Positions 1,696 to 24,416 of a stretch of DNA of 62,115 nucleotides are shown here, piece after piece. Made by a program: the position numbers and the translations under genes. Below the pieces are notes generated by a model. That model ran no database searches. It had not been told where the DNA came from and saw only the letters and a list, made by a program, of their open reading frames with translations. The DNA lies in sequence record DRR378314_172, one strand, 5' to 3'. How positions within the stretch are numbered: position 1 is the stretch's first letter; each line of letters opens with the position of its first letter.

Positions 1696-1770
1696 CCGGC
1701 CCGCCCGAACCAACCGGCCCAACCAAACGCCGAGTATTGCCGTACACATGTATCAAGAACTGCGCCGACT

Positions 1771-3072: not shown

Positions 3073-3166
3073 ACCGTCACCCTTGACGACAATTCATAGT
3101 TGATTACCTTCAGCCGAGGAATTTCCAAATCTAACCCTGGGTTGTAAGAATATATAGGATTGCCTG

Positions 3167-4528: not shown

Positions 4529-4636
4529 GATGGCAAAAGCTGAATATATATTTGTGAAGACCCCAATTCGCCCCAAAGGGCAAACAACAACCTCTGGCCC
4601 TATTTAAAGAGCCGCACGTAACGGGAGTTAGCAATA

Positions 4637-5161: not shown

Positions 5162-5198
5162 GCGCCACGACGCGTTTGGACAGGGACAGGTGAGAGAC

Positions 5199-6692: not shown

Positions 6693-6741
6693 TTCGTTTT
6701 CCCCCCGGAAAGCGATGTGTAGCGCCTAAAGGAGTTATTTC

Positions 6742-7239: not shown

Positions 7240-7268
7240 GACCAGCCCCACTGGTTCGATATATCCCC

Positions 7269-7293
7269 GAGAAGGCCGTCCTGCGGCCTTCTC
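7269..7293 (+). terminator. Stem-loop after hcp (possible terminator or mRNA-stabilising hairpin)
   Basis: GAGAAGGCCG-tcctg-CGGCCTTCTC inverted repeat 30 nt after the hcp stop, followed by a pyrimidine-rich tail without a clear U-run. Confidence 0.5.
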
Positions 7294-7373
7294 CCTTCTC
7301 AGCGCAACGGCCCGCGCTTTAAACCGGGGTCGTATCTCTACCTAATTTTCAGTCCGGTGCAGAAGGTGCAGAC

Positions 7374-7967
7374 ATGCGGCGCGGCGAAGCGGACAATTCT
7401 GAAACCGGTGACCTCCGCTGGCAAACTGGCCGCAAGGCCAAGACCTCCATTCTACAGGTGTTCCGCGCCTCTCACAGCGACCGCGACGCCCATCGTCGGC
7501 GCGAGATTTCCGGTGATGGCACCGCGCAGTTGACCTCTGCACGCAAGCAACGTCGGTTTGGCGTCTCCGAGAACGAATTGCGCCAACATCTCGAAGCGGA
7601 TCTGGCCGCACTCCTCAACACCATCCATTTGGAGGCGGTCTCGTCCCTAGAGGATGCACCACATGTGGCAAATTCCATTTTGAACTACGGGTTTCGTGAT
7701 CTCAGCGGCATGGGCAAGGTCGCGCTCAACACCCCTGCCGTTGTGGACACGTTGCGGCAATCTCTGATCCGGTTTGAACCGCGCCTCATTGCCGACAGTC
7801 TCGATGTGCAGATCCGCGACACCAGTGGCGGGAAAAACCATCATCTGGCGATCTTTGTCAGCGCCGAACTGCTGGGCGATCCTGTCGATGTGCCACTTGA
7901 TTTCGATGCCGAAATTGATCTCGGCGCCGGCAAGATGTCCCTGTCCAACCTGCGGGTGAACGCATGA
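7374..7967 (+). CDS. tssE: T6SS baseplate subunit TssE (gp25-like)
   Basis: DLAALLNT...SILNYGFRDLS...FEPRL motifs; stop overlaps the tssF start (ATGA). Confidence 0.9.
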   Translation: MRRGEADNSETGDLRWQTGRKAKTSILQVFRASHSDRDAHRRREISGDGTAQLTSARKQRRFGVSENELRQHLEADLAALLNTIHLEAVSSLEDAPHVANSILNYGFRDLSGMGKVALNTPAVVDTLRQSLIRFEPRLIADSLDVQIRDTSGGKNHHLAIFVSAELLGDPVDVPLDFDAEIDLGAGKMSLSNLRVNA

Positions 7968-9892
7968 GACGAGCGCTCCGCGATGCCTATAACCAAGAGC
8001 TTGGCCTGCTGAAGGAACGCGCGGCAGAATTTGCCGGCGAATATCCGGGCCTTGCGGACCGGCTTGGTGGGTTGCTTGAAGAAAACATGGACCCTGCCGT
8101 TGCAGGGCTGCTGGAAGGGTCGGCGTTCCTGTCCGCACAGGTCAAGGTCAAGATGGCCGAGGAGTACCAGACCTTTACGCGTGAACTGCTGGAGCAGATC
8201 TTTCCCGATGCACTGGCTCCGACCCCCAGTGTGATGCTGGTCAAGGCCCATGCGCCAGTAGACAGTCCAGAAATCGAAACCGGCCTGTCCTTCACCGCGG
8301 GTGAATACATGGACGCCCGGTTTCTTGATGCCCAGCAGCGCGTCTCCTGCCGCTTTTCACTCGCCGCCCCTCTCACGGTCTGGCCCATAGGCATCACCGA
8401 AGCCGCCTATCATGCCAGCGCCGGCCCGATCAGCGCCCTGGGTCAGGAAATCGCCAGCGGCACCAAGGCCGGTCTGGTGGCGGATGTCTCCCGCCTTGAC
8501 AAGAATGGGGTGCCAAGCCTCAGCGACAGCCTCAACACGCTCGAAATGGACAGTCTGACACTGCATTTCACCGCCCCGATGGATGAAGCGGCTGTGCTCT
8601 ATGAGCAGGTCTTCTGTGATTGCACACGGGTGTCGCTGCGCTGGCTCAACGCGCAGGGAGATCCGGTATTCGCGCGGCTTTCACCAAATCAGATTCACAA
8701 GATCGGCTTTGGCGATGGGGAACAGTTGTTCCCCCATCAAAAACGCCTGTTCGATGGTTTTGCCCGGCTGCGCGAATTTTTCGTCTTCCCCCGCAAGTTT
8801 CTCGGCCTGCGCCTGAGCGGTCTTGGGAACATTCTGCCGCATGTACGCAGCAACACGGTGCAGCTGGTGTTTGAATTCTCCAGCGCACGCCAACGACTGG
8901 CCGCCAGCCTTGATCCGCAGGATCTCGCAGTGAACGTGGCCCCGACTGTGAACCTCTTTGAGGAAATGTCCAGCCATCTGCATCTCGACCGCAAGCGGCA
9001 TGAATACACCATCACACCAAACTCAAGCCCGATCACCCATTACGAGGTGCATCACGTCACGGAGGTCTGGGCGCACTACACCGACCGGCAGAGCAAATCC
9101 GAAGTCTACCCGCTCTATGCACTGCCGCCAGAAGGCAAGAACGCACGGCAGACGTTGTATTTCACCACGCGGCGCAAACCACGCCGTCGCACATTGGCAG
9201 AACAGCGCAAGGGCATTCCCCGCAACCTCTATCGCGGCACTGAAACCCTGATCAGCCTCTACCAGCCCTCAGAACACGACAGCGTCACTCGGCTGCAGGT
9301 AAAACTCCTGTGCTCCAATCGCCATTTGCCGGAATACCTGCCGATTGCCGAGAGCACCGAAAGCTTTCACCTCTGTGACGATCAGACCGTCTCCCTGACC
9401 TGCCTCGCGGGACCGACGCCGCCGCGCGACAGCCTTGCGGATCGCGAAACCAACGCCAATCACCGCACGTCGGCGGGCGACACCTATTGGCGTCTGCTGT
9501 CTTATCTTTCGCTTGGCACCTCCGGTCTGCAAAGCCCGGAAGGCGGCATGTCGGCGGCCTCTCTGCGGGAAATGCTGTCGCTGTTTGCAGACCTGTCCGA
9601 CACCGTCAGCGAGGCTCAGATCAGCGGCATTCGTCAACTCGATTGCACTCCGGTGACCCGAACCGTTGCCGCACCCGACGGCTATCACACAGCCCGCGGT
9701 TTGCTGATCCGGGTGACCTTTGACGAGACCGAGTTTGAAAGCACAGGCATCGTTCCCCTTGGCGCGGTTCTGGATCAGTTTTTTGCCGAATACGCCGCGG
9801 TCAATAGTTTCACTCAAACCGTGATCCACAGCCAGCAGCGAGGGGAGATCACCCGCTTCGCTCCCAGATCCGGCGCAGGGGCACTGCTGTGA
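7964..9892 (+). CDS. tssF: T6SS baseplate subunit TssF
   Basis: YNQELGLLKERAAEFAGEYPGLADRL, DPAVAGLLEGSAFL, LREFFVFPRKF, LCSNRHLP, FFAEYAAVNSF. Confidence 0.95.
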   Translation: MRRALRDAYNQELGLLKERAAEFAGEYPGLADRLGGLLEENMDPAVAGLLEGSAFLSAQVKVKMAEEYQTFTRELLEQIFPDALAPTPSVMLVKAHAPVDSPEIETGLSFTAGEYMDARFLDAQQRVSCRFSLAAPLTVWPIGITEAAYHASAGPISALGQEIASGTKAGLVADVSRLDKNGVPSLSDSLNTLEMDSLTLHFTAPMDEAAVLYEQVFCDCTRVSLRWLNAQGDPVFARLSPNQIHKIGFGDGEQLFPHQKRLFDGFARLREFFVFPRKFLGLRLSGLGNILPHVRSNTVQLVFEFSSARQRLAASLDPQDLAVNVAPTVNLFEEMSSHLHLDRKRHEYTITPNSSPITHYEVHHVTEVWAHYTDRQSKSEVYPLYALPPEGKNARQTLYFTTRRKPRRRTLAEQRKGIPRNLYRGTETLISLYQPSEHDSVTRLQVKLLCSNRHLPEYLPIAESTESFHLCDDQTVSLTCLAGPTPPRDSLADRETNANHRTSAGDTYWRLLSYLSLGTSGLQSPEGGMSAASLREMLSLFADLSDTVSEAQISGIRQLDCTPVTRTVAAPDGYHTARGLLIRVTFDETEFESTGIVPLGAVLDQFFAEYAAVNSFTQTVIHSQQRGEITRFAPRSGAGALL

Positions 9893-10998
9893 ATTCGCCG
9901 GTTCCCGCCCCTGTCGCCCCCCGCGCCAGCGACGTTTTGGAGAAACGTGACAGGCAGAAACGGTCTGCCACTGGTGTCGGCCTGTTCACGCTGTTGCGCG
10001 AATTGGAACGCCGCGCTGACAACAAGCCCGCCATCGGTCAGAACAAGCGCTTGCGCGATGCGATCGTGCATCTGGGGCAGGATCCGGCGCTGGCCTTCCC
10101 GACCCGCGACGTCGCACGGGTTGATCTAAGTGAGAGCACACCGCGCTTGCGGGCGCAATTCATGGGGTTGTTCGGTGCCTTCGGCGCCCTGCCGCTCAAC
10201 TGGACCGAAGAGGTCGAGTCCTGGTTCGCGGCCGGGGATGAGAGCTTTGTCGCGTTCTGCGATATTTTCACCGCCCGTTTCCAAGAGCTGTTCTTCCGCG
10301 CCTGGTCCGACGCACAACCGATTACCCAGTTTGACCACGCCGACAGTGATCGCTTTCAGGCCTACATCCTGTCCCTCCTGGGCTGCGGTTCAGCCGCTGT
10401 CCGCACGTCCAAGCAGCTCGATGACATGACCAAGCTGCATCTGGCACCGCTTGCGGTCGGCCGGGTCAAAAGCCCGGTACGGCTGCGACAAATGCTGGAA
10501 CTGCGGTTCGATGGGCGCGCGACCTTTCGCATCGAGGAACATGTGCCCTGCTGGCTTGCCCTGGAACCCGACGCCCTCTGTCTGCTCGGCGATCAGGGAT
10601 GTACATTGGGCGAAAACGCGGTTCTCGGAGGTCACGTGCAATCGCTAAGTGCCAAGATCCGTATCCATGTGATGCTACGCGATCTTGGTCAGTACCAGCG
10701 CTTCCTGCCGGGCGGCGCCGATCATGCGGCACTGCAGGCCATCGTGTTCTGGTATTTGGGTCAGGCCTTCGACATCGAAACCGCGCTGTGGCTGCCCCGC
10801 CCCGAGATCTCCACTGCAGTGCTCGGCCAGAGCACGCAGGTTGGCTGGCTGGCCTGTATCGGCCCTGTTGCAACGCCAGAGCCGGGCGCCCCACCCGGTG
10901 CCCAGCCCATCACCGCCGCAGATCATATGCAGGTCAGCCGCTATCCGCTCCTGCCCGAACCCTTTGTCGACGATGAATTGAAGTCCACCGCAGCCTGA
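9889..10998 (+). CDS. tssG: T6SS baseplate subunit TssG
   Basis: LGQDPALAFP, FMGLFGAFGALPL, FCDIFTARFQELFFRAW, YQRFLPGG; overlaps the tssF stop. Confidence 0.93.
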   Translation: MNSPVPAPVAPRASDVLEKRDRQKRSATGVGLFTLLRELERRADNKPAIGQNKRLRDAIVHLGQDPALAFPTRDVARVDLSESTPRLRAQFMGLFGAFGALPLNWTEEVESWFAAGDESFVAFCDIFTARFQELFFRAWSDAQPITQFDHADSDRFQAYILSLLGCGSAAVRTSKQLDDMTKLHLAPLAVGRVKSPVRLRQMLELRFDGRATFRIEEHVPCWLALEPDALCLLGDQGCTLGENAVLGGHVQSLSAKIRIHVMLRDLGQYQRFLPGGADHAALQAIVFWYLGQAFDIETALWLPRPEISTAVLGQSTQVGWLACIGPVATPEPGAPPGAQPITAADHMQVSRYPLLPEPFVDDELKSTAA

Positions 10999-11029
10999 TA
11001 GGCGACGGTACAATCGAGGCCCATATTTG

Positions 11030-13747
11030 ATGACCGAAATCACCATTGAGAAATACGCCGGCAAGATGAACCGCGCCGGCTATGACGCCTTCCTGCACAG
11101 CATGCGCGAGGCCCGTGGCGCCCGCAACCGCTATGTCGATCTGTGTCACTGGCTGTTTCATTCGGTGTCGAACCAGAACGCCGACATCTCCGTCACCCTG
11201 CGCCAGCTGAACCTGGACCGGGGCCGCGTGCTCAAGGATCTGTCGGCGGCGATGGATCGGCTGGACAAGAATGTCACCGAAACCCCCGGCATCAGCGATC
11301 ATCTCGCGGATGCGCTGAACCACGCCTGGACCTATGCGACGCTGTTTTTCGGCGAGGCGCAGATCCGCACCGGCCATGTGCTCACCGCGCTGCTGAATGA
11401 CCCGTCGCTGCGGCGCCAGCTGCTGCGTTACTCCTCGGTGTTCGAACAGATCTCCGCCGAGCAGCTTGGCCAGGACAGCCGCAGCCTCTGGACCGGCAGC
11501 GAAGAGGACAGCATGCGCCCGATGGACGGCGCCAACCTCTCCACCGCCGAGGATGCGGCGGAGGGCGGCGCGGGCAAGGGCGGCACCACCGCGCTGGGAC
11601 GCTTTGCCAAGGACATGACCGCAGCCGCCGCCGAGATGGACCCGATCAAGGGCCGCAACGACGAGATCCGCCAGCTGACCGACGTGCTGCTGCGCCGGCG
11701 CCAGAACAACCCGATCCTCACCGGCGAGGCCGGGGTCGGCAAGACTGCCGTGGTCGAGGGCTTTGCCCAGCTCCTGGCGGCGGGCGACGTGCCGCCCAAG
11801 CTCAAGGGCACCCGCCTGTTCGAACTGGACATCCAGTCGATGCAGGCCGGCGCCTCGATCAAGGGCGAGTTCGAACAGCGGCTGAAATCGGTGATCGACG
11901 AGGTGCAATCGGCGCCCGAGCCGATCATCCTGTTCATCGACGAGGCCCATACGCTGATCGGCGCCGGGGGGCAGGCGGGCACCGGCGATGCCGCCAACCT
12001 GCTGAAACCGGCGCTGGCGCGCGGCACCCTGCGCACCATCGCCGCCACCACCTGGAGCGAGTACCGCCAGCATATCGAGAAAGATCCGGCCCTGACCCGG
12101 CGTTTCCAGCCGGTCAATGTCGACGAGCCCTCGGTCGAGGTCTGCTGCGACATGCTGCGCGGCATCCTCGGCCCGATGCAGGCGCATCACAACGTGCGGA
12201 TCTCCGACGCCGCCATCGTCAGCGCCGTGACCCTGTCGCATCGCTACATTCCGGCGCGGCAGCTGCCCGACAAGGCGGTGTCACTGCTCGATACCGCCTG
12301 CGCCCGCGTCGCCCTCAGCCAGTCCGCCCTGCCCGCCCGCATCACCGCCACCCGTGCCCGGATCGAGGCGCTGGAGGCCGAGCTGGACGGCAAGACTGCC
12401 GCCCGCGACCTCGGCGAGGTGCATGACGAACGCCTCATCGAGATCCGGACCGAAATCGCAGAGCTGTCCGACCGGCTGGCGACGCTGGACACCAGTTACA
12501 CCCGCGAGAAGGAGATCGTCGATCAGGTGCTGGACCTGCGCGCCCGGCTGCACGCGCAGGACGCTGCAACGCCCGGCGCGACCGACCTCGAGACAGACGA
12601 GACGGCGGACGCCGGGCCACCGCCGGCAGAGGCTGCAGACGACACGCCGCAGATCGACCCCGACGCCCTGCGCGCCGAGATGCAGAGCCACATGACCGCA
12701 CTGGACGGCGCCAACCCGGACGACCGCATGGTCTTTGCCCATGTGGATGCGCAGGCGGTGGCCTCGGTGATTTCCGACTGGACCGGCATCCCGGCGGGCC
12801 GGATGATGCAGGACGAGCTGGACGCGGTGCTGAACCTCGCGGACGACCTGCGCGCCCGCGTCATCGGTCAGGACCACGGGCTCCAGTCCATCGCCAAACG
12901 CATCGAGATCAGCCGCGCCGGTCTTGGCAATCCCAACAAGCCGATCGGCGTCTTCATGCTCTGCGGCCCCTCCGGCGTCGGCAAGACTGAAACCGCCCTG
13001 GCCCTGGCCGAGACGCTTTATGGCGGGGAACAGAACGTCATCACCATCAACATGAGCGAATTCCAGGAGGCCCATACGGTCTCGCTGCTGAAAGGCGCGC
13101 CTCCGGGCTATGTCGGCTATGGCGAAGGCGGGCGGCTCACCGAGGCGGTGCGGCGCAAGCCCTATTCGGTGGTGCTGTTGGACGAGGTCGAAAAGGCCCA
13201 CCCGGATGTGCATGAGATCTTCTTCCAGGTCTTCGACAAGGGGGTGATGGAGGATGGCAACGGCCGGGTGATCGACTTCAAGAACACGCTGATCCTGCTC
13301 ACCTCCAACGTCGGCACCGAGGTGATCATGGACCGGGCGCCCGATGACGGCAGCGCCCCCGACCTCGAGGCGCTGGAGGTTGCGCTGAAACCCAGCCTGC
13401 TGGAGGTCTTCCCGCCGGCGCTGCTGGGCCGCATCGTCACCGTGCCCTATCTGCCGCTCGGCGCGAAGGTGCTCGGCGGCATCACCCGTCTGAAACTCGC
13501 GGCGGTGGAAAACCGCCTCAAGGGGGCCCATGGCACCGAGCTGGTCTATGGCGCCGATGTCATCGACCATATCACCAGTCTGTGCCGCGACCCGGACAGC
13601 GGCGGGCGGATGATCGACAATATCATCACCAATTCGATCCTGCCGGAGCTGAGCCGCAAGGTCCTCAAGACCCTCAGCAGCGGCGGCGAGATCCATCGCG
13701 TCATCGTCAGCGCCGATGCGGACGGGTTCCACTACGTACTGAGCTGA
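11030..13747 (+). CDS. tssH: T6SS AAA+ ATPase TssH/ClpV
   Basis: Two AAA+ modules (RRRQNNPILTGEAGVGKTA; GPSGVGKTETA), LLKGAPPGYVGYGEGGRLTEAVRRKPYSVVLLDEVEKAH; ClpV-type N-domain; T6SS context. Confidence 0.96.
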   Translation: MTEITIEKYAGKMNRAGYDAFLHSMREARGARNRYVDLCHWLFHSVSNQNADISVTLRQLNLDRGRVLKDLSAAMDRLDKNVTETPGISDHLADALNHAWTYATLFFGEAQIRTGHVLTALLNDPSLRRQLLRYSSVFEQISAEQLGQDSRSLWTGSEEDSMRPMDGANLSTAEDAAEGGAGKGGTTALGRFAKDMTAAAAEMDPIKGRNDEIRQLTDVLLRRRQNNPILTGEAGVGKTAVVEGFAQLLAAGDVPPKLKGTRLFELDIQSMQAGASIKGEFEQRLKSVIDEVQSAPEPIILFIDEAHTLIGAGGQAGTGDAANLLKPALARGTLRTIAATTWSEYRQHIEKDPALTRRFQPVNVDEPSVEVCCDMLRGILGPMQAHHNVRISDAAIVSAVTLSHRYIPARQLPDKAVSLLDTACARVALSQSALPARITATRARIEALEAELDGKTAARDLGEVHDERLIEIRTEIAELSDRLATLDTSYTREKEIVDQVLDLRARLHAQDAATPGATDLETDETADAGPPPAEAADDTPQIDPDALRAEMQSHMTALDGANPDDRMVFAHVDAQAVASVISDWTGIPAGRMMQDELDAVLNLADDLRARVIGQDHGLQSIAKRIEISRAGLGNPNKPIGVFMLCGPSGVGKTETALALAETLYGGEQNVITINMSEFQEAHTVSLLKGAPPGYVGYGEGGRLTEAVRRKPYSVVLLDEVEKAHPDVHEIFFQVFDKGVMEDGNGRVIDFKNTLILLTSNVGTEVIMDRAPDDGSAPDLEALEVALKPSLLEVFPPALLGRIVTVPYLPLGAKVLGGITRLKLAAVENRLKGAHGTELVYGADVIDHITSLCRDPDSGGRMIDNIITNSILPELSRKVLKTLSSGGEIHRVIVSADADGFHYVLS

Positions 13748-14540: not shown

Positions 14541-14926
14541 TGCCCCGCCCCCTCGCCATCACCATTCTGGCCGGCTTTGCGCTGTTTGGGCTTGTGGTGG
14601 CGGGCTGGGGTCTATGGGACATTGCCGCCGCCCTCACCGCCCTGTCGGACTGTGCAGGGCAGGTCATCTTGGACAGCAGCGCCTTCTGGTTTCTGGCGAT
14701 GGCAGTGCTACCGCTGTTCCTGCTGCTGGCGCGTCTGGATCAACGCAATCACACGCGCCTGCTGGCGGGGATTGTGGCGCTGGCGATCACGCTGCCCGCC
14801 GGTGGCTTCGTGATGGTGCAGCATCGCGCGGCAACGACGGGGCATAGCTTTGTTCCCCCACTCACGCTGTTTGCCCTGCGCGAGGTCACGGCAGCCCGCC
14901 CGCCAGCCTGCGACATTGACAGCTAG
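14540..14926 (+). CDS. Putative immunity protein (DUF1240/Tmi-like, about 3 TM)
   Basis: 128 aa, three hydrophobic segments, C-terminal Cys; start overlaps the effector stop (TGATG), the usual effector-immunity layout. Confidence 0.55.
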   Translation: MPRPLAITILAGFALFGLVVAGWGLWDIAAALTALSDCAGQVILDSSAFWFLAMAVLPLFLLLARLDQRNHTRLLAGIVALAITLPAGGFVMVQHRAATTGHSFVPPLTLFALREVTAARPPACDIDS

Positions 14927-17073
14927 AGCTGCGCCAGCAACGCATCAATCTGTGACATGTAGGCCTTGACCTCGGGCGGGATGGCAACGACCGCACGCCG
15001 CCCCCCCTCCTGCATCTTGCGATCCGCCCAGGCCAGCAGATCGGCAATCCGGTCGCCCTCCAGGAACGGATTTGCCGCCACCACCTGAGCGCCCAGAACC
15101 TCCTCGACGCTCAGCTCCGGATCGCTAGCCAGCGCCCGATGCGCCCCTTCCGCGCCGAGGAAATGCGCCAGATACAACCGCCCGGCGGTGACCTGATGGC
15201 CGCGGGCGCGCAGATAGGTCTCACCTTCCTGCGCCAGGCGGCGCACCATCTCCCGGCTCAAGACGGGATCATTGCGCAACTCCAGAAGCTCGGCCCGCGA
15301 AAGCTCCGCGACAAGATCAGGCCGGTAGCTGGTCATCATCCGGACCCAGGTGCTGGCGATGAACTGCCCGGCCCCCGTGGCCGAGGACAACGGGTTCTGC
15401 GCATCGGCGCGCCCGCCGCTCTCCACCTGGATGATACGGTCGACCAACGCCGCCACCGCGCCGCTGCCGAATTGCGCCGGATCGGTGGGCCGCCCGCCGA
15501 CCCAGAGCTCAAAATGCAGATGCGGCCCGGTGGAGCGTCCGGTGGAGCCGACAAACCCGATCTGCGCCCCGGCGGCCACGTGTACCCCGGGCGAGATCCC
15601 GTCGGCAAACCCCTGTAGGTGAGCGTATCGGGTCTCCACGCCATCTGCATGACTGATCGCCACCAGATTGCCATAGCTGCCGCTGTCCCCGGCCAGGCGG
15701 ATCTCGCCGGCGCGCGCCGCATAGACCGGCGTGCCTTCGGGGGCGGCCCAGTCGACACCATTGTGCGGCAGCATCTTGTCGCGGATCGGATGCATCCGCA
15801 TGCCAAAGCCGCTGGTCTTCACGCCGGTCACCGGAATTGCCAGCCCGGCCCCCAGCCGCATCCCGCCGCCACCACCGCTGGCACCATCGAAACACCCAAA
15901 ACTTGCCTCCGGCCCGGATTTCTGCGTGACATAGCATTGCATGCTTTCCGAGGACCCTTCGATACCGGCATACAGGATCTGGCCCGCGCTCCCCTCCTCA
16001 ACATCGCTGGAGAACAGAAGAACCAGACGCTCCCCCTCCTCAGCCAATCGCTCCAGATCGAACCGCCGCGACATCATCACGATCAACTCGCCGACGAGCC
16101 CGGTCGAAACACCATTGCGCAGCGCCGTGGAATAGAGCGCATCCATCAGGCGCACACTCCGCCCCGGCACATCTTGTCCCATCAGCTGATCGGAGCGTTG
16201 CAACAGATCCTGCTCGGCCCATGGATCGGCAGCCCGAGCGAACCGGCCAGGGCCATTCTGCGCCAGACTCGCCAGATACCTGTCCGGCGCATAGAGCGAC
16301 AGCTGCAGCAGCTGGCGCCCTTGCACCACCTCCGGGCCGGTTCTGGAGCGCAAGGCGACCACGCTGCCCGCGTCTATCTCGCCCTCCACGCCAGCAATAC
16401 GGTTGACCGCAGAGGCGATCGCTTCGGCTTGCGCGATGTCGAACCCGGCGTCGGTCAGCACGTCCAGCAACATCTGCCGCGTATTCAATATGATGATATC
16501 ATCATCAAACAGCGCGGTTCGCCGAGTTCCAGGCGTTGCCAATGCGACACTGGCATCCCGCTGCGCAATTTCCGATCCGCCGTCGGTGCTGTCCCCACCA
16601 TGCAGAGCATCCCTGCGCTGCGCCTGAAACAACGCAAAATCATCCCTGCCGGACGGCAACTGCAGCACCAGATTGCGCCCGCTCGCTACAAGGTCATCCT
16701 GCAATGCCGACAGGCGATTCATCTGTGCGCGACCGCTGGTGGCAAGCGCGCCATCGGATGGAAGCGCAAGATCCTGAACCCTGTCCCCATCGCCTTCATC
16801 GACATGAAGCAACATCGGCGCACGGCGCAAATTCAACATTGCGCGCACCCGCGCCTGTCGGACGGACGGTTCCGGCGCGATCGTTTCCGTAGGCACCATC
16901 GCAAGATCCGTATCCACATCAGGCCCGCGGTCACTGCTGAGCCAGATCCCGAGCCCCGCCAGCACGGCCAACGCTGCACCGCCTCCGAGCAACCGTAGCG
17001 CAAGGCGGCGGCGGCGACGTTTGCGTGCTTGTGCCGTCGCCCGCTGAAATGCCGGATCGATTGAGTAGGACAC
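14923..17073 (-). CDS. Membrane-anchored M23 metallopeptidase fused to a lysozyme-like lytic transglycosylase domain
   Basis: N-terminal basic stretch plus TM helix (RKRRRRRLALRLLGGGAALAVLAGLGIWL); M23 motifs HNGVD and STGPHLHFE; C-terminal IIQVESGG...SSATGAGQF..STW...LYLAHFLG transglycosylase motifs. Confidence 0.85.
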   Translation of the reverse strand: MSYSIDPAFQRATAQARKRRRRRLALRLLGGGAALAVLAGLGIWLSSDRGPDVDTDLAMVPTETIAPEPSVRQARVRAMLNLRRAPMLLHVDEGDGDRVQDLALPSDGALATSGRAQMNRLSALQDDLVASGRNLVLQLPSGRDDFALFQAQRRDALHGGDSTDGGSEIAQRDASVALATPGTRRTALFDDDIIILNTRQMLLDVLTDAGFDIAQAEAIASAVNRIAGVEGEIDAGSVVALRSRTGPEVVQGRQLLQLSLYAPDRYLASLAQNGPGRFARAADPWAEQDLLQRSDQLMGQDVPGRSVRLMDALYSTALRNGVSTGLVGELIVMMSRRFDLERLAEEGERLVLLFSSDVEEGSAGQILYAGIEGSSESMQCYVTQKSGPEASFGCFDGASGGGGGMRLGAGLAIPVTGVKTSGFGMRMHPIRDKMLPHNGVDWAAPEGTPVYAARAGEIRLAGDSGSYGNLVAISHADGVETRYAHLQGFADGISPGVHVAAGAQIGFVGSTGRSTGPHLHFELWVGGRPTDPAQFGSGAVAALVDRIIQVESGGRADAQNPLSSATGAGQFIASTWVRMMTSYRPDLVAELSRAELLELRNDPVLSREMVRRLAQEGETYLRARGHQVTAGRLYLAHFLGAEGAHRALASDPELSVEEVLGAQVVAANPFLEGDRIADLLAWADRKMQEGGRRAVVAIPPEVKAYMSQIDALLAQL

Positions 17074-17085
17074 CGCGCGCCCGGC

Positions 17086-18528
17086 CTAGCGGAAGACGCC
17101 GCCCAGAGCAGCGCCCGGAGCAATCTGGGTCTGAGCAGGCGCAGGGTTGGCCGGAGCTTGCGCCGCCGGGCGGGACGCTGCAGGGGCGGTGGTTGTCCGA
17201 GGCGGTGATATGGCGGCAATCGGCTGTGTACAAGTCACGTCCTCACGCCCGATAATTGCACGAAACAGCGACACGCTGGCGGCTTGTGTCGGAGCTGGGA
17301 CGCCAACTTCGGTATAATAGCGTTGGACGGCGCGTTGCGATCCCGGCCCCCAGGCACCGTCGACGCGGCTGGTATAACATCCCATACGGGCCAGCTCCTG
17401 CTGCAATGCCTGTACCAGAACAGGGCCCGGCGGATCAAAGGCACCGCTGGAAACCAAATTGGCAAACAACTCCGGGTTCTGTCGCTGCAGCTGCTGGCGT
17501 GCCTCTACACTATCATAGCTGATCTCGCTGCCCGACAGGTCCGACGGATCCAACGCCGCCGAGAATCTCTGATCCGCGCCTTCAACAAGGCCGACGATAA
17601 TAGAGGGTTCAGGCAGGCCTTCTGCACGGGGCACCTCAGCCAGCTGTGGTGATGGAACAGGTGAGAAGATCATCACCTGAGATTGTGCATCAGGCTGGAC
17701 CAGCGGACGCGCCTCGGTGGTCCCAGGGCTGCGCACCGGGGTCAGGCCGACAGAAGCACTGGCCGGAATGTTGGCCGGAGCACTGGCCGGGGTCACTCGC
17801 ACCACATCAGTGATCATCACCTGATCGCTGCGCGGGGTATCAGCGGATGCAGTCTCCGGGGGGATCACTTCAACCTGTGGCAACTGTTGCGCAGAGCCCT
17901 GTCGCAGAAAGGGCACCAGAACGGATACAGGGGCGGCAGAAGGTTTTGACGCATTTCGAAGCGCATCGCTGAGCCGCTCGCCTTCGACCGGACACGCCGC
18001 GCCTGCTTCGGCGCTGGCTGCGATAACCAATGTGAAACGGTTCGAGATACCTGGATCCGGCAAAGCGGAGGCGCGGTCAGTGTCTCCTGCGCAATTCTCC
18101 ACCAACAGCAGCAAATGCCTCAGCCCATCATCCGCAAGGGTCTCGATACGCGGAGCCAATGGAACGTCACGTCCATCCACGCGCATCATATCGTCGGCAA
18201 GCGGGCCAGCATAATAGAGGACAAGCCGTGAGTGCCCCCGCAGGTCGGCAAAGGCCGCATCAACCGCGTCAATGTTGGTGTTGCGCAACAGAACAGGTGC
18301 CTGGCTGCCCCAGCTCTGCACTGCTTCCGCCGCATAATAGGAATCTGCAAAGGCGCGTCCCGCCCCCTGCCCGGTATCTCCAACAACCAGCGCAGGCCAA
18401 TCCTGCGCCATGCCGAAGCTGCCGATGACGCAACCAAAGGCGCCGAGCACAAAAGAAGACCACCGAGGAGCAAACGTCAAAACAAGCCTCAACGCACAAT
18501 GGGAAGAATTGCTATCTCTATTTCGCAA
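17086..18528 (-). CDS. Exported caspase-like (probably inactive) protein with C-terminal peptidoglycan-binding domain
   Basis: Signal-like N-terminus; caspase-fold-like strands ALVVG, LVLYYAG and LLLVENC; C-terminal LQQELARMGCYTSRVDGAWGPGSQRA (PG_binding_1-like). Start codon uncertain (TTG). Confidence 0.6.
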   Translation of the reverse strand: MRNRDSNSSHCALRLVLTFAPRWSSFVLGAFGCVIGSFGMAQDWPALVVGDTGQGAGRAFADSYYAAEAVQSWGSQAPVLLRNTNIDAVDAAFADLRGHSRLVLYYAGPLADDMMRVDGRDVPLAPRIETLADDGLRHLLLLVENCAGDTDRASALPDPGISNRFTLVIAASAEAGAACPVEGERLSDALRNASKPSAAPVSVLVPFLRQGSAQQLPQVEVIPPETASADTPRSDQVMITDVVRVTPASAPANIPASASVGLTPVRSPGTTEARPLVQPDAQSQVMIFSPVPSPQLAEVPRAEGLPEPSIIVGLVEGADQRFSAALDPSDLSGSEISYDSVEARQQLQRQNPELFANLVSSGAFDPPGPVLVQALQQELARMGCYTSRVDGAWGPGSQRAVQRYYTEVGVPAPTQAASVSLFRAIIGREDVTCTQPIAAISPPRTTTAPAASRPAAQAPANPAPAQTQIAPGAALGGVFR

Positions 18529-18569
18529 CCATACCTTGCACCGCCTAGAGAAGCGACCGGAAGATCGCG

Positions 18570-18992
18570 CTAATCATCTGTAGAGCGCAGAAAAAATGAC
18601 CAACTGCTCGATTGCTCCGTGTCAACCTCGTGAAAGCGCGCGTCGATAAAGCCACGAGTCAGGCACTCTTCCTCGCCACGGATGAAGAACCGGCCGGTAT
18701 CCACACACATCGGAGTGGCCCCATCCAGCAACGCCCGTCCAAACACATCTTTGGCAAAGACATACACAAACCGCGACGTCAGGTTTTCGCTGATCACCTC
18801 TGCGCATTGATTGGGTCCGACGACCCACCATCCTGAACTCTCGAACGCCCCGTCATCATAGGCCGCCACCGCAACATTGGCGACGTCCAGGGTCTGATTG
18901 CAGAATGTGAACTCGGCACGCGCCGGCCCTGCGATGTACAGACCGGCACACAGGGCCGCGCCGAAAACAGCTTTTAACATATTGATGTACAT
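18570..18992 (-). CDS. DUF1036 family exported protein
   Basis: Signal peptide ending ARA, then FTFCNQT...SSGWWVVGPNQC...FVYVFAKD...C..RGF..ARFHEVDT, the DUF1036 pattern. Confidence 0.8.
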   Translation of the reverse strand: MYINMLKAVFGAALCAGLYIAGPARAEFTFCNQTLDVANVAVAAYDDGAFESSGWWVVGPNQCAEVISENLTSRFVYVFAKDVFGRALLDGATPMCVDTGRFFIRGEEECLTRGFIDARFHEVDTEQSSSWSFFLRSTDD

Positions 18993-19852: not shown

Positions 19853-20305
19853 ATGGGCATTCTGACTGCGGCCAAGACATTCGTTCTGGCCACTACAATC
19901 CTTGCAACACAGACTGCTGCGACCTTCGCACAGGACACATCAGAGCAAACGGAAGAGTTTCAACTCGACCTCAATTCGGTCACCGAAACAACCGAGGGTA
20001 GCTGCCGACTGACGTATGTGGCCTCAAATCGGTCATCTACGGCGCTGGATCGTGCATCCTACCAGATCGCCTTGTTTGACGGCGAAGGCGTGGTGACTCG
20101 ACTGCTGGTTCTTGAATTCGGCGAATTGACCGAAGGCAAAACCAAGGTTCTGCAATTCGATCTGGCAGAAACCGGGTGCGGTTCGATTTCGCGTATTGTG
20201 GTCAATGACTCGCCCGCATGTGTCGCCAGTGACGGCAGCGCAATCGACCTGTGCATGTCAGGTCTCGTTGCTAGCTCCCGCACCCCGATCCAGTTCGGTA
20301 TTTGA
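19853..20305 (+). CDS. Conserved periplasmic protein of the type found upstream of alphaproteobacterial exbBD operons
   Basis: Signal peptide; LDLN...CRLTYV..N...LFD.EGVV.RL.VLEFGEL..GKTKV.QFDL...C..ISRIVVND...C; RBS GAGGA. Confidence 0.65.
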   Translation: MGILTAAKTFVLATTILATQTAATFAQDTSEQTEEFQLDLNSVTETTEGSCRLTYVASNRSSTALDRASYQIALFDGEGVVTRLLVLEFGELTEGKTKVLQFDLAETGCGSISRIVVNDSPACVASDGSAIDLCMSGLVASSRTPIQFGI

Positions 20306-20370: not shown

Positions 20371-21018
20371 ATGACAAATTTCCGGGCAGACATGTTCGAT
20401 CCGTTGACGCTGATCGTTTTTGCAGCCCTTGCCGTGATGTCCGTCACCGTCTTGTCGGTCTTTTTCTTCAAGCTGCTGCAGTTTTCCCGCCTCGGCGTCG
20501 GTAAACGCCGGTTGGCAGAGCAGATCATCAACACCTGGCTGTCCGGGCAGGCCGAAACAGCCATGCAGCAGGCCGCCGCACGTCAATCTGTATTATCACG
20601 CATCCTGCATGCGGTGTTCACAGGCTTGCGTGCACGTCCGGGTGAAACCGCTTATGCAGAGGAGCTGGGTCGTCAAACTGCGATTTCCGAACTGGCGACC
20701 CTGTCTGATCGTATTCGTCTGCTGGAAATCGCAGTACACGCGGCCCCCATGCTCGGCCTGCTGGGGACTGTGATCGGCATGATCGACGCCTTTTCCGTTC
20801 TGGCACAATCGCAAGCGGCCGCAGACCCCGCAGCTCTTGCCGGCGGCATCTGGACCGCGCTGACCACAACAGCTGCTGGCCTCGCAGTCGCGCTGGTCGC
20901 GTTCTTCCTGACCAACTGGCTCGACGCACGCATCGAACGGGAGCGTAATCTGATCGAAGTGCTGATCTCTGCGGCAATTCACGGCCGGGTCGATCAGTCT
21001 GCGCGAGTGCAGGGCTAA
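20371..21018 (+). CDS. exbB: MotA/TolQ/ExbB proton channel family protein
   Basis: APMLGLLGTVIGMIDAF and LAGGIWTALTTTAAGLAVA signature helices. Confidence 0.9.
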   Translation: MTNFRADMFDPLTLIVFAALAVMSVTVLSVFFFKLLQFSRLGVGKRRLAEQIINTWLSGQAETAMQQAAARQSVLSRILHAVFTGLRARPGETAYAEELGRQTAISELATLSDRIRLLEIAVHAAPMLGLLGTVIGMIDAFSVLAQSQAAADPAALAGGIWTALTTTAAGLAVALVAFFLTNWLDARIERERNLIEVLISAAIHGRVDQSARVQG

Positions 21019-21024
21019 CCACAG

Positions 21025-21480
21025 ATGCAGATCAACCGGCTTGACCTTCCCATCCGCAAGCGGCGCGTCAGTTTCACGCTGACGTCGCTGGCGGATGTGA
21101 TGTTTCAGCTTCTGGTGTTTTTCATGCTGTCCTCCAGCTTGACCCCATACGCTCTACTGCCGCTTCACCGGACAGACCCAGTGTCAGATGAACGTATCGG
21201 GACCGGTTCTGGTCGCGAGACCACAACTGCAACCGCCGTAGGCGCCCCTAGCGCCGCACCTTTATGGAACCTTGAATCCGGTTCACTGTCGATACGCGGT
21301 CAATCCTTCGACTATACTGCCCTGCCCGATCTCGTCGCGGCATTGGGCAGCGAGACCACGCCTGCTTCGGTAGTCCTGATCGTCAAGGCCTCGGCTCGGG
21401 TTCAGGACGTGGCCACCGTATTGGCACATTTGCAGGCTGCGGATGTGACCGCGGTCCAAATCAGCGCAGGAGGGTTTTGA
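21025..21480 (+). CDS. exbD: ExbD/TolR family protein (canonical TM Asp)
   Basis: TSLADVMFQLLVFFML TM helix; C-terminal ARVQDVATVLAHLQAA...VQI. Confidence 0.85.
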   Translation: MQINRLDLPIRKRRVSFTLTSLADVMFQLLVFFMLSSSLTPYALLPLHRTDPVSDERIGTGSGRETTTATAVGAPSAAPLWNLESGSLSIRGQSFDYTALPDLVAALGSETTPASVVLIVKASARVQDVATVLAHLQAADVTAVQISAGGF

Positions 21481-21887
21481 AAATGCCCCGTCGTGCGCCA
21501 CTGCTTCCGCCACGCCCGCAAATGGTTCAGACCGACACCTCGCTGGCGATCGTCAATGTGGTCCTGCTGCTGTTGCTGTTCTTTCTCGCCAGTGGATCGC
21601 TCATTGCGACCCGAGACACTGAAATTCAACTGCCGTCGACACAGGAATTGTTTCCCGAACAACTGCCAAGTCCACTGCTGGAGGTGCGGCTTGATGGAAG
21701 CCTGCGCCTTGATGGCGACCCAACCACGCTGCCCCGGCTGAACACTGCGCTGACGCCTGGCGGCACGCTCTATGTCCTGATGGAGCGTACGGCTCCAGCC
21801 CTCGATCTGCTGGAGCTGCTGGCCCAGCCGCCCTTTGCCGAGATGAATGTTACCTTGGTCACGATACATGAGCAGGCGGATACGTGA
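21477..21887 (+). CDS. exbD: Second ExbD/TolR family protein (Asp replaced by Asn)
   Basis: SLAIVNVVLLLLLFFLASG TM helix, IQLP and LEVRLDGSLRLDG; overlaps the previous stop (start TTG 21477 or ATG 21483). Confidence 0.75.
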   Translation: MKMPRRAPLLPPRPQMVQTDTSLAIVNVVLLLLLFFLASGSLIATRDTEIQLPSTQELFPEQLPSPLLEVRLDGSLRLDGDPTTLPRLNTALTPGGTLYVLMERTAPALDLLELLAQPPFAEMNVTLVTIHEQADT

Positions 21888-23233
21888 GCATTCTTCCTTA
21901 TGGTCGTCCTGAGTCTTCGGGCTGGTTTTTTGCCAGTAGCGGATCACTGGCCGCACATGCTCTTGTCGGTGTGTTCATTCTCGGCGGGCTGCAGCCTCTC
22001 CTTCTGGCCGCACCACCATCGACGGATGCACCACGCTACAGCGTCACGTTACAGCCGCTTGATTCAGATACGCTGGCCGGGCTGGAATTACGCGAGGGCT
22101 TGGCTGGAGCCGAGATCCTTGAAGACAGCTCCGCCAATGTCGATCCCCTGCAGCCGGTGGAGGGGCTTGAAAGTCTGACAGCGGAAGACATCGACGAAGA
22201 AGAGCTTGCGGCACTGGGCCCGGACAACACTGATGCAACCCCACTACCGACGGGCCCGGAGCCTGTTTTGGCAGAACCGGTCGAAGCGGATCCCGTAGCA
22301 CCCGACACACAGGAACAGGAAACCGCAACGCTCGCCCAAGTGACGGCAGATCCGGTCCCACAGGACAGCCCGCTCTCTCCACTGATCCCCGAAGACACCA
22401 ACCCGTTGATCCCGGAAACGGTGACCGCCATCGCCTCATCCGGAGTGGCGACCATCTCCGCGGCACCGGTTTCCTCGCGGCCTTCGCCAGATGCAGTGGC
22501 GGTTCTTCAAAATGAGGCCCTTCGCCCTGTCGCAGTGCCCTCCTCCGGCGCAAGTGCGGGTCAGCCAGCCGAAGCCCAGGATACGACCACGTCGGCCCGC
22601 CCCCCTGCCAGCGCACAGGACCTTGCGGTGGGGAATCTCATCCGGAAGATCCGCGAAAACACCGGGCCCGATTGCCTACTGACCCTGCCACGCCGCGACG
22701 GCGAAGCAGGCGTCGGTCTTGATATGATGGCAACACGAGATACGGCGTTTTCCGAATTCTCCCGTACGACACTGACCCAAGGTGACGAAACACTGCGTCA
22801 GACGCGGACGCTGCTTGACCCACGGCAATGCCCGGCTGTGGACTACATCCGCGACAACCGGGACTACCCCGCTACACGTCTCGGCTTGCGTCTAGACACC
22901 CCGAATGTGGTCAGCGGAAACCGGATCACCGGTGTGCTGCGCGGCACCGGCGGCAAATACGTGGCCCTGCTCTTGGTCGACAACAACGGCGTGGTTCAGG
23001 ATCTGCAGCGGTTCCTCTCGCAGTCCGGCAACTTCACCCGCTTTGATGTACCGGTGACACGTGCGGGGCCCCGACGCGATACCGCACAAATCCTGCTCGC
23101 CGTTGCAAGTTCCAACCCGCTGCAACAGATCCGAGATCGCAGTGGCCGGCTGGCGGCGGATGTGTTTGCGGGACTGCACGCAGGGCTGACAGGACGCGAA
23201 GCGATCGCTGTTACAACGTTCGACGTACGCTGA
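21884..23233 (+). CDS. TonB/TolA-like energy transducer with atypical C-terminal domain
   Basis: N-terminal TM helix with S-x3-H (SLAAH), long acidic/Pro-rich linker and a ~200 aa globular C-terminal domain with two Cys; coupled to exbD (GTGA overlap). Confidence 0.6.
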   Translation: MSILPYGRPESSGWFFASSGSLAAHALVGVFILGGLQPLLLAAPPSTDAPRYSVTLQPLDSDTLAGLELREGLAGAEILEDSSANVDPLQPVEGLESLTAEDIDEEELAALGPDNTDATPLPTGPEPVLAEPVEADPVAPDTQEQETATLAQVTADPVPQDSPLSPLIPEDTNPLIPETVTAIASSGVATISAAPVSSRPSPDAVAVLQNEALRPVAVPSSGASAGQPAEAQDTTTSARPPASAQDLAVGNLIRKIRENTGPDCLLTLPRRDGEAGVGLDMMATRDTAFSEFSRTTLTQGDETLRQTRTLLDPRQCPAVDYIRDNRDYPATRLGLRLDTPNVVSGNRITGVLRGTGGKYVALLLVDNNGVVQDLQRFLSQSGNFTRFDVPVTRAGPRRDTAQILLAVASSNPLQQIRDRSGRLAADVFAGLHAGLTGREAIAVTTFDVR

Positions 23234-23337
23234 ACCTCGACCGAACTGGACATCGATCATCCCGTCGCCATAAGAACGTTTCATCATAGCGACGCAACAT
23301 GCTAAATATCATCGAAGAGGATTTGTGGAGGCACATT

Positions 23338-24401: not shown

Positions 24402-24416
24402 TCCGGCGCTGATCGG

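Follow-up and report, generated by a model that had tools for sequence, protein, structure and literature searches.

What does a TonB-like protein act on when its gene lies close to a type VI secretion system (T6SS) and its C-terminal end is foreign to TonB? The question is raised by an open reading frame (21884..23233, + strand) in a stretch of DNA of 62,115 nucleotides (DRR378314_172), the whole of which is referred to below as the window. The product of this frame, called the arm here, was compared with its relatives in a collection comprising one genome per species, where tblastn confirmed 137 of 334 pattern-matched stretches, 80 loci being kept. A profile of the C-terminal domain of the arm matched 1112 cluster representatives at E≤1e-3, and judging from these two sets of matches the arm family clearly extends far beyond chance.

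The motor operon and the anatomy of the arm

The arm is encoded by the last of five translationally coupled genes, which are arranged in the order u150, ExbB, ExbD1, ExbD2 and arm. The first gene, u150 (19853..20305, +), has a translation that shows a small secreted protein with a signal peptide and four cysteines; it gave no Pfam match, its look-alikes in the ESM Atlas are clusters that are unnamed or carry the name 'Tat pathway signal' (at 0.97), and 75 of the 80 related loci have a homolog immediately before ExbB. The second gene (20371..21018, +) encodes a proton-channel subunit of the ExbB/TolQ/MotA family (PF01618, E 3e-26), the best NCBIfam match of which, TolQ, scores 56 bits against a cut-off of 221 bits; since this score is far below the cut-off, the protein was assigned to a divergent clade. 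ExbD1 (21025..21480, +; PF02472, E 8e-11) carries the transmembrane Asp, which was found in 77/77 orthologs. In the second ExbD paralog, ExbD2 (21477..21887, +; PF02472, E 5.5e-6), this residue is lacking: of the 77 orthologs, 72 have Asn in the helix, 5 have Ser and none has Asp. ExbD2 overlaps the adjoining genes by 4 nt at both ends, its stop sharing 4 nt with the start of the arm frame. A promoter and terminator scan yielded nothing reliable above shuffles.

The setting of a TonB-like transducer, which had been proposed from the sequence alone, is a general one, ExbB, ExbD1 and ExbD2 being located directly upstream of the arm in 77/80 loci. The nearest genome (G001) has five MotA/ExbB genes. 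Two of these are no more than about 2 kb away from TonB_C genes, and the arm homolog has a different one at a distance of about 1 kb; the motor of the module is additional to the housekeeping one.

The arm has 449 residues and a GTG start codon, which is the right one, since the N-terminal motif MSxLPYG is nearly invariant among the family members. On the basis of hydropathy and alignment, residues 1-45 (21884..22018, +) form a cytoplasmic stub and a single membrane helix at about residues 14-40, the hydropathy peaking at about 22-44 (the best 19-residue windows start at 22-26). The sequence-only reading had described an S-x3-H helix of the kind found in TonB. The helix is present and its His25 (codon 21956-21958) occurs in 28/28 aligned members, but position 21 is Ser in only 19/28 and Ala in 9/28; since Ser21 is only partly conserved, the motif is really S/A-x3-H with an invariant His. 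It is followed by a juxtamembrane periplasmic segment (residues 46-75; 22019..22108, +) conserved in the family alignment (P.F.VTL..LDSDTLAGL), in which L59 is invariant and A65 nearly so. By composition, residues 76-244 (22109..22615, +) are an acidic Pro/Ala-rich linker, as had been suggested: its 169 residues include 25 Pro (15%), 30 Asp and Glu, and 3 Lys and Arg. The length of the linker is variable, the family members ranging from 349 to 720 aa. The C-terminal domain accounts for the remaining 205 aa. Searches of Pfam and NCBIfam with the N-terminus did not find a match to a TonB/TolA family, and the TonB-likeness of the arm is a matter of architecture and gene context, not of a sequence family match.

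Escherichia coli TonB is the reference for the role of the S-x3-H anchor motif in the Ton system. The Ton system and the present module have in common the single N-terminal helix with a conserved His, the Pro-rich spacer, the position of the gene after ExbB/ExbD and the Asp in ExbD1. They differ in that the Ser of the motif is not conserved in the arm family, that the arm lacks TonB_C (the PF03544 model matches two other genes in the nearest genome, not the arm) and has instead a tip homologous to a kinase sensor domain, that the module includes two ExbD paralogs, one of them without the Asp, that its operon is headed by a secreted four-Cys protein, and that it is linked to T6SS and kinase genes, not to TonB-dependent receptors.

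The C-terminal domain and its counterpart in a kinase

No Pfam or NCBIfam family matched the C-terminal 205 aa at E≤1, nor did any PDB sequence at E≤10, and the statement that the domain is not TonB_C is upheld. The further suggestion that it resembles the periplasmic domains of alphaproteobacterial T6SS Ser/Thr kinases proved to be correct. With hhalign, the profile of the arm domain matched that of the periplasmic domain of the Rhodobacterales T6SS Ser/Thr kinases at 99.2% (E 1.2e-19, 191 columns); BLASTP of the arm domain with the one kinase encoded in the nearest genome gave E 2e-4, and when this kinase was compared with the window by tblastn, the sole significant match in six frames was the arm domain (E 6e-5). 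Of 20 proteins found with the kinase-domain profile, 18 carry Pkinase, and the kinase-sensor profile had exactly two matches in each of the five closest genomes, the kinase and the arm. C264 and C316, for which a disulfide is predicted, are invariant in the arm family and in the kinase family; with the two families taken together, C264, Q315 and C316 each reach 90% conservation or more. In a tree, 35 arm domains were cleanly separated from 28 kinase domains (support 1.0), and the identity between arm and kinase was no higher in same-genome pairs (19.5%) than overall (20.2%), which points to one old duplication without gene conversion. The anatomy of the arm and the homology of its tip to the kinase sensor domain can be regarded as nearly certain.

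The Pkinase domain itself was absent from the arm and from the 15 family members tested in a Pfam scan, and none of the 28 members of the kinase family showed a match in its periplasmic domain to any relevant Pfam family. Many of the kinase-less arm homologs are named 'serine/threonine protein kinase' by the NCBI; this public naming is a widespread annotation error, which is corrected here.

The AF2 models of the domain (pLDDT 91.3 for the whole domain with its two lobes, and 90.9) include an alpha/beta lobe with C264 and C316 (residues 245-324; 22616..22855, +) and, as seen with VIA-align, an Ig-like beta-sandwich lobe (residues 326-449; 22859..23230, +) in which the sequence D366-N-G-V-V-Q-D is located. 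The VIA-align matches cover model residues 82-205, the best being 4kh9_B (DUF4785; Z 9.2, rmsd 3.7, 99 residues), followed by Ig and macroglobulin domains at Z 7-8. A Foldseek search of the PDB, run with the model of the whole domain, found nothing beyond generic matches to Ig, SoxZ and antibody chains (E about 1e-4, TMq≤0.34). When the N-lobe was modeled alone, Foldseek found no match at E≤1e-3, and VIA-align gave only weak matches (Z 5.0-5.5) to ring-building motifs of type III secretion systems and to BON domains; no fold name is claimed for this lobe. Neither fold search had a TonB_C or TolA chain among its listed matches. The predicted fold of the arm domain is that of a small alpha/beta lobe joined to an Ig-like sandwich.

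A DUF4384-like fold had also been put forward. In the accessible part of its source (10.1101/2025.01.12.632604), DUF4384 (PF14326) is described as a domain occurring at the C-terminus of certain bacterial Ser/Thr kinases and of caspase homologs. DUF4384 and the arm domain both have an Ig-like sandwich with a core consisting of a hydrophobic strand, D/N-x-G-x-V and L, and the arm domain differs in having the extra two-Cys alpha/beta lobe. Against an alignment of 24 DUF4384 domains, the match of the arm profile was weak (hhalign 31%, E 5e-4, 46 columns), and that of the kinase sensor profile reached 73% (E 3e-5) over 85 columns, that is, the whole of DUF4384. Among the language-model look-alikes, 24 of 30 clusters fall in the DUF4384-bearing set (12% of the members for the listed cluster), but the Pfam model matched neither the arm nor the 28 kinase domains at E≤1. 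A kinship of the arm domain to DUF4384 is thus weakly suggested.

The other T6SS subtype of the Rhodobacteraceae has an ExbB-ExbD-ExbD-TonB-like module of its own, in which the tip of the arm is a true DUF4384 that resembles the C-terminus of the kinase of its own cluster (BLASTP E 5e-6). No significant match was obtained between the profile of the present arm domain and either the single sequence P0254 (E 0.46) or the profile built from the DUF4384 arms of the parallel module (E 0.37 and 0.17), and no demonstrable homology is claimed between the tips of the two arm families. The parallel module was detected in at least 46 of 401 sampled genomes of Rhodobacteraceae, without any overlap with the 33 genomes carrying the five-gene module; the two modules together are present in at least 79/401, and TssF in 110/401.

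Linkage to the kinase and to the T6SS

The window carries a T6SS core block identified with Pfam (1066..13747, +), comprising DUF6931, Fha/TagH (1771-3072), TssA, TssB, TssC, Hcp, TssE, TssF, TssG and ClpV (11027-13747). Three divergent genes, likewise recognized with Pfam, are present between this block and the module (14923..18992, -), encoding an M23 peptidase (14923-17073), a protein with a peptidoglycan-binding domain (17086-18528) and DUF1036 (18570-18992). Their homologs occur in 51, 65 and 59 of the 80 loci, respectively, with order and orientation kept. In 41/80 loci, the 10-kb flank reaches ClpV at its edge.

Among the 68 loci with a flank of at least 3 kb, the kinase gene is convergent and downstream of the arm in 50, and in 47 of these it is no more than 1 kb away. 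This linkage also holds at loci such as L111 and L113, in whose neighborhood neither M23 nor DUF1036 was seen. The kinase is not adjacent to the arm in the other 18 loci with enough flank, which include the clade of the window, and it was not found by a six-frame tblastn search of the 62,115 nt. For this clade the comparison was based on the nearest genome and on the genomes behind loci L007-L012 rather than on the window's own assembly. In the five closest genomes the kinase gene lies beside TssM, apart from the module, at a distance of 38-84 kb on the same contig in three of them and on other contigs in two. A single contig of the nearest genome carries TssL, TssM, TagF, PP2C and the kinase, then Fha and the genes from TssA to ClpV, and then the module.

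In the 401 sampled genomes, the arm was detected in 33. TssF is present in 32 of these 33, as compared with 110/401 overall, and it lies on the same contig within 33 kb in 19/33; one arm-positive genome has no TssF match. In three others (G219, G207 and G033), the sole TssF found belongs to the other subtype, which scores higher, and is either distant or on another contig. The module is therefore not strictly tied to a cognate T6SS, and travels more tightly with the kinase than with the T6SS core.

Possible roles of a putative motor-driven arm

Motors of the Ton, Tol and Mot type drive uptake, division, motility and type IX secretion, and we know of none powering type VI secretion or kinase signaling. 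To our knowledge, the TagQRST route of Pseudomonas aeruginosa is the only case in which the sensing of the envelope by a T6SS kinase is understood. AglRQS-Glt is a gliding motor. GldLM is described as the motor of type IX secretion in the accessible part of its source (PMC8986121). Both resemble the module in that a proton motor of the MotA/ExbB type serves a machine other than an uptake system and has an output protein spanning the periplasm, whereas their output proteins and machines are different and include no secretion-system kinase. No report of an ExbB/ExbD/TonB-like module within a T6SS cluster was found in our literature search.

According to the portion of a review available to us (PMC13584744), TagR of P. 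aeruginosa activates PpkA to homodimerize and autophosphorylate, and PpkA then phosphorylates TagH/Fha. The TagQRST-PpkA-PppA-Fha1 pathway of the H1-T6SS, as outlined in the parts of two sources consulted (PMC13584744, PMC13713981), has the same general make-up as the T6SS cluster of the nearest genome, where PP2C, TagF and Fha accompany a membrane Ser/Thr kinase that has a periplasmic domain, and periplasmic accessory proteins would be expected to feed the kinase in both cases. It differs in that the periplasmic domain of the present kinase has no Pfam match and has a motor-borne paralog. The known PpkA pathway would seem to have no proton-driven component, since the accessible part of the review contains no mention of ExbB, TonB, TolQ, MotA or proton motive (PMC13584744). 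In the TssW-PpkA-Fha system of Acidovorax citrulli, as far as the excerpted source goes (PMC12607579), an envelope accessory protein is in contact with the periplasmic domain of PpkA and governs the place and frequency of T6SS assembly; unlike TssW, the candidate partner considered here is an inner-membrane, motor-coupled arm bearing the kinase's own domain.

In the mechanism proposed, ExbB, ExbD1 and ExbD2 would constitute a proton-driven stator in the inner membrane, and the arm would be the periplasm-spanning part of a dedicated third Ton-type motor, anchored beside the stator by its single helix with the invariant His and carried across the periplasm by the long acidic, Pro-rich linker. 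In place of TonB_C, its tip is an ancient paralog of the periplasmic sensor domain of a PpkA-type T6SS kinase. Since the arm and the kinase have periplasmic modules of one kind, it is probable that both recognize a common envelope partner or that they make contact with each other. The PpkA/PppA/Fha threonine-phosphorylation switch, which licenses the assembly of the T6SS, might have its input set or reset by the proton-motive force through the motor. The gene set suggests an energy-coupled control input to the T6SS, and we infer from the conserved gene order and one weak complex prediction that the force of the motor may reach the phosphorylation switch; that the arm feeds this switch is a serious possibility, which we put forward tentatively.

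The prediction in question concerns the arm and kinase domains of a same-genome pair (L013), for which the ipSAE was 0.38, as against 0.00 for the best of three controls, a result classed as 'weak support'; the runs agreed in at least 95% of the contacts, and the pLDDT of the partner was at least 85. The contact mark was reached by 51/78 solved complexes and 2/108 mismatched pairs, but passes at or below 0.60 included only 5/78 solved complexes, yet all 4 mismatches that passed. By the tool's calibration, a weak pass such as this one will, unless backed by a strong prior, be wrong in more cases than it is right. In the more specific form of the proposal, ExbB-ExbD1-ExbD2 would pull on the arm, the tip of which would pair with the PpkA sensor domain or compete for its partner; this plan, in which a DUF4384-type tip is common to the TonB-like arm and the kinase, would be kept in both of the major T6SS lineages of the Rhodobacteraceae. 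Mechanical gating of the kinase in this way is rather unlikely.

It is slightly less likely again that the motor and the arm serve to remodel or anchor the envelope, opening or marking the wall or outer membrane at the T6SS site together with the M23 peptidase, the peptidoglycan-binding protein and DUF1036, and that the kinase reads the same landmark with its paralogous domain, no signal passing from arm to kinase. The conservation of these three genes beside the module and the weak resemblance of the N-lobe to ring-building and BON modules of envelope machines would agree with such a role, and TagX-like cell-wall remodelers are listed among the recognized T6SS accessory factors in the part of the review available (PMC13584744). 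On the other hand, no peptidoglycan-binding family was detected by Pfam in the arm, and the tightest linkage is that with the kinase, which persists in the apparent absence of M23 and DUF1036 from the surroundings, as in L111 and L113.

It is improbable that the arm domain acts as a static decoy or co-receptor, which would pair or compete with the kinase sensor domain and tune its dimerization without any proton-motive force, ExbBD contributing only to stability or localization. That PpkA is activated to homodimerize, according to the accessible text of the review (PMC13584744), and the above contact pass, which falls in the mostly unreliable range, are both in keeping with this idea. The fact that His25, the Asp of ExbD1 and the three motor genes have been kept argues against it, since it suggests that the energy coupling is under selection.

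An equally improbable explanation is that the kinase and the motor form a self-contained sensor of envelope stress or nutrients, unrelated to the T6SS and often located beside its genes by happenstance. In three genomes (G219, G351 and G207) the module and the kinase have stayed side by side, with TssF lying at a distance of 1.2-2.6 Mb or on a different contig, and one arm-positive genome has no TssF match at all. Against this stand the enrichment of TssF among the arm-positive genomes, its presence within 33 kb in 19 of them, and the position of the kinase in the nearest genome, between PP2C/TagF/TssM and Fha.

That the arm is an ordinary, divergent TonB or TolA serving outer-membrane receptors or Tol-Pal function is hardly credible, since the His-bearing N-terminal anchor, the Pro-rich linker and the ExbB/ExbD operon would fit, but neither Pfam nor NCBIfam gave a TonB_C or TolA match, the model shows two lobes and its listed fold matches include neither TonB nor TolA, no TonB-dependent receptor gene was detected among the scanned ORFs of the window, and two canonical TonB_C genes, accompanied by their own ExbB, are present in the nearest genome.

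The reading of the arm as a motor-driven input to the PpkA/PppA/Fha switch provides a concrete hypothesis for the energy-coupled control of a secretion weapon, and the arm gives the kinase sensor domain a second, experimentally convenient context. If mechanical gating were true, T6SS firing would be licensed only in an energized cell with an intact envelope, and if the design were general, motor-coupled control of the kinase would be an overlooked general layer of T6SS regulation.

The operon and its putative motor

The target ORF (21884..23233, +) is a real gene encoding a protein of 449 aa with a GTG start, and it closes a tightly packed set of genes on the same strand. The set begins with u150 (19853-20305, +), encoding a small secreted protein with four cysteines and no family, followed by ExbB (20371-21018, +; PF01618, E 3e-26), ExbD1 (21025-21480, +; PF02472, E 8e-11) and ExbD2 (21477-21887, +; PF02472, E 5.5e-6), with 4-nt overlaps between ExbD1 and ExbD2 and between ExbD2 and the target. 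In the target, an N-terminal stub and a single hydrophobic helix (about residues 14-40) are followed by a juxtamembrane segment that is conserved (46-75), by a linker of 169 residues (76-244), of which 25 are Pro, 30 acidic and 3 basic, and by a C-terminal domain of 205 aa, called here the tip. The architecture proposed in the sequence-only reading, a transmembrane helix with S-x3-H and an acidic, proline-rich linker, is correct, but only the histidine of the motif is conserved: in an alignment of 28 members His25 is invariant, while four positions N-terminal of it 19 members have Ser and 9 have Ala.

Searches of Pfam, NCBIfam and PDB sequences with the target gave no match. A word-indexed search yielded 113 relatives of 270-720 aa, the length differences being accounted for by the linker, and all those carrying an organism name come from Rhodobacterales. 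Many are labeled "serine/threonine protein kinase" by NCBI; none of the 15 tested carries a Pfam domain, and no kinase domain was found among them, so that the label seems to have been transferred from the shared C-terminal domain. In a collection with one genome for each species, 334 stretches matched by pattern, and at 137 of them tblastn confirmed a relative; the 80 loci kept are nearly all from Rhodobacterales, the closest being Tritonibacter mobilis (63% identity). Of 1.84 billion cluster representatives, 1112 match a profile of the domain from the target and its orthologues (the arms) at E<=1e-3, and 247 do so at E<=1e-30. Within the top 150, the matches listed, one protein of 1874 aa (P0128) has five tandem domains of the arm/kinase sensor type and no Pfam domain.

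The transmembrane Asp of ExbD and TolR is the protonatable site. It is kept in all 77 ExbD1 orthologues, whereas the same helix site in ExbD2 is Asn (72/77) or Ser (5/77) and never Asp, which suggests that the two form a heteromeric pair with a single protonatable site. The genome nearest to the window (G001) has five MotA/ExbB genes. Two of them have a canonical TonB_C gene no more than about 2 kb away, and another is about 1 kb from the homologue of the target; this last one, being distinct from the TonB_C-linked ones, therefore represents an extra, dedicated motor. The u150 protein may be a periplasmic partner of the arm, the kinase or both; among its language-model look-alikes is an IrmA-family cluster at 0.95. 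The peptidoglycan (PG)-binding protein (17086-18528, -) and a Ser/Pro-rich ORF of 204 aa (19133-19747, +) end in GVFR and the target in FDVR; these endings may be a shared C-terminal tag.

A domain shared with the T6SS kinase

In G001, a T6SS cluster on the contig of the target homologue contains the genome's single Pkinase gene (633 aa), with PP2C/TagF/TssM/TssL on one side and Fha/TssA on the other. By BLASTP, residues 267-413 of the target align with residues 443-580 of this kinase (E 2e-4, 24% identity), a part sitting behind its membrane helix. Searching the six frames of the 62-kb window with the kinase gave one significant match, the domain of the target (E 6e-5), and no kinase domain. 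When the alignment of 35 arm domains was compared with that of the last 230 aa of 28 kinases, hhalign gave a probability of 99.2% and an E of 1.2e-19 over 191 columns, that is, the whole domain; the likeness of the tip to the periplasmic domains of T6SS Ser/Thr kinases, proposed in the sequence-only reading, is thus borne out. Eighteen of 20 matches to the kinase profile carry Pkinase, and each of the five closest genomes has just two matches to the profile, one in a kinase of about 700 aa (E 1e-77 to 1e-80), the other in the target orthologue (E 1e-17 to 1e-20).

In a tree of 63 domains, arms and kinases split exactly, with support of 1.0 and a long branch, and arm-kinase pairs from the same genome (n=18) are no closer than pairs overall (19.5 vs. 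20.2% identity), which indicates one old duplication with no later exchange. The columns at least 90% conserved over both families are C264, Q315, C316, L364, G369, G421, and A424 (target numbering), and C264 and C316 may form a periplasmic disulfide.

The AlphaFold2 model of the tip (35-row alignment; pLDDT 91.3, pTM 0.89) has two lobes. The second (model 82-205) is an Ig-like sandwich, for which VIA-align ranks 4kh9_B (DUF4785) first, with Z 9.2 and an rmsd of 3.7 over 99 residues, ahead of many Ig and macroglobulin domains (Z 7-8); Foldseek of the tip model returned generic Ig-like chains only. The first lobe, modeled alone (pLDDT 90.9), gave no Foldseek match at E<=1e-3, and with VIA-align only T3SS ring-building motifs and a BON domain at Z 5.0-5.5, within the noise of the tool. 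The suggested DUF4384-like fold is weakly supported: the Pfam model matches neither arms nor kinase sensor domains, whereas in hhalign against an alignment of 24 alphaproteobacterial DUF4384 domains the kinase sensor scored 73% (E 3e-5) and the arm 31% (E 5e-4), and 24 of 30 language-model look-alike clusters belong to a DUF4384-bearing set (12% of members in the listed cluster).

Linkage to T6SS genes

Using the window proteins as tblastn queries against the 80 loci, we found a conserved order: ClpV, M23 peptidase (-), PG-binding protein (-), DUF1036 (-), u150, ExbB, ExbD1, ExbD2, arm. Homologues of ExbB, ExbD1, and ExbD2 occur at 77 loci, u150 at 75, the PG-binding protein at 65, DUF1036 at 59, M23 at 51, and ClpV, at the edge of the 10-kb flank, at 41. 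This company of M23, PG-binding protein and DUF1036 is what a role in cell-wall remodeling, or as a landmark, would draw on; on the other side stands the kinase, which lies convergently 3' of the arm at 50 of the 68 loci with at least 3 kb downstream, within 1 kb in 47 of the 50 (median gap 53.5 nt).

The 18 loci lacking an adjacent kinase include the window's own clade (L007-L012), in which the T6SS cluster is split and the kinase adjoins TssM. Of the five closest genomes, three have arm and kinase 38-84 kb apart on one contig, and two have them on separate contigs. At the start of the window (1-1700), an unrelated autotransporter-like ORF, encoded on the opposite strand and bearing a PATR repeat, precedes the T6SS block, which begins abruptly at DUF6931 (1066)/Fha (1771) and runs from TssA through ClpV; no TssL or TssM was detected among the scanned window ORFs. 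A block starting from DUF6931/Fha, with the kinase absent, fits the split arrangement of this clade. Beyond the module (window 23299-30665), a GFA gene and nrdIEF come between it and a VgrG gene (28617-30665, -). The accessible text of a survey of Leisingera ANG-M7 and JC1 describes the same block as a smaller "cluster 2" with only tssA-H, and contains no occurrence of ExbB, ExbD or TonB (PMC9515649).

Among 401 genomes sampled evenly across the family, 33 carry the arm (E<=1e-30) and 110 carry TssF. Of the 33 with the arm, 32 also have TssF, which in 19 lies no more than 33 kb away on the arm's contig. Six genomes count against a strict tie between arm and T6SS, as would be expected of a T6SS-independent sensor: G039 has no TssF match, G219, G207, and G033 have only a TssF of the other, higher-scoring subtype, far off or on other contigs, and TssF lies 1.2 Mb from the arm in G351 and 168 kb in G189. 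In G219, G351, and G207, u150, ExbB, ExbD1, and the arm domain remain clustered; ExbD2 and the kinase catalytic domain were likewise found in G219 and G207, but neither in the G351 stretch. In the genomes examined, arm and motor thus stay with the kinase even where the T6SS core is distant.

A second five-gene set lies in the other T6SS cluster of Leisingera G003 (contig C7, L144:6302-9645, -), consisting of a 139-aa ORF, ExbB, two ExbD genes and a 447-aa TonB-like protein with an S-x3-H helix, a Pro/Ala-rich linker and the same C...QC spacing as the arm tip. This protein ends in a true DUF4384 (34.5 bits vs. a cut-off of 27). Relatives lie at loci L147-L176; at least 46 of the 401 sampled genomes have one, and in the genomes compared a TssF of the higher-scoring subtype is about 9-10 kb away. 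Its tip matches the DUF4384 profile (99.2%, E 1.8e-19), shows no significant profile match to arm or kinase sensor domains, and resembles the kinase C-terminus of its own cluster (BLASTP E 5e-6, 28% over 119 aa). Thus, in both T6SS lineages of the family, a TonB-like arm appears to have its tip in common with a T6SS kinase.

A possible motor input to the kinase switch

The arm thus combines a TonB-type anchor, linker and motor operon with a tip that is an old paralogue of the kinase periplasmic domain, and it has long been co-inherited with the kinase, mostly also with a T6SS. Arm and kinase would place the same kind of module into the same compartment, and their tips therefore probably bind each other or a shared partner in the envelope. 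According to the accessible text on the P. aeruginosa model, PpkA is activated to homodimerise and then phosphorylates Fha/TagH (PMC13584744), and in Acidovorax the outer-membrane protein TssW is described as binding the PpkA periplasmic domain and positioning the system (PMC12607579). For the arm and kinase tips of one genome (L013), complex prediction gave an ipSAE of 0.38, the best of three controls giving 0.00, with runs sharing at least 95% of contacts and a partner pLDDT of at least 85, a result that the tool rates as weak support. In its calibration, 51 of 78 solved complexes and 2 of 108 mismatches attain the ipSAE mark, and the passes at or below 0.60 stem from just 5 of the 78 solved complexes and from all 4 of the mismatches that got through, so that the predicted contact tips the balance only slightly towards direct binding.

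The arm might instead, with lower probability, be a static decoy that pairs or competes with the kinase tip; the invariant His25, the motor genes at 77 loci and the invariant Asp of ExbD1 point rather to selection for energy coupling. An ordinary TonB shares the anchor and the motor type, but no TonB_C or TolA chain is among the fold matches listed, and the tip is not TonB_C, as had been claimed.

In openly accessible papers, we found no description of a T6SS cluster with a Ton-type motor, nor of domain sharing between arm and kinase, and ExbB, TonB, TolQ, MotA, and "proton motive" do not occur in the accessible text of a 2026 review of T6SS accessory factors (PMC13584744). We class the module as a Ton-type motor with a new output: it has the motor type in common with the Ton system and differs from it in an output linked to the T6SS kinase. 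In these Rhodobacterales, the motor would introduce an energy-dependent step on the input side of the PpkA/PppA/Fha switch.
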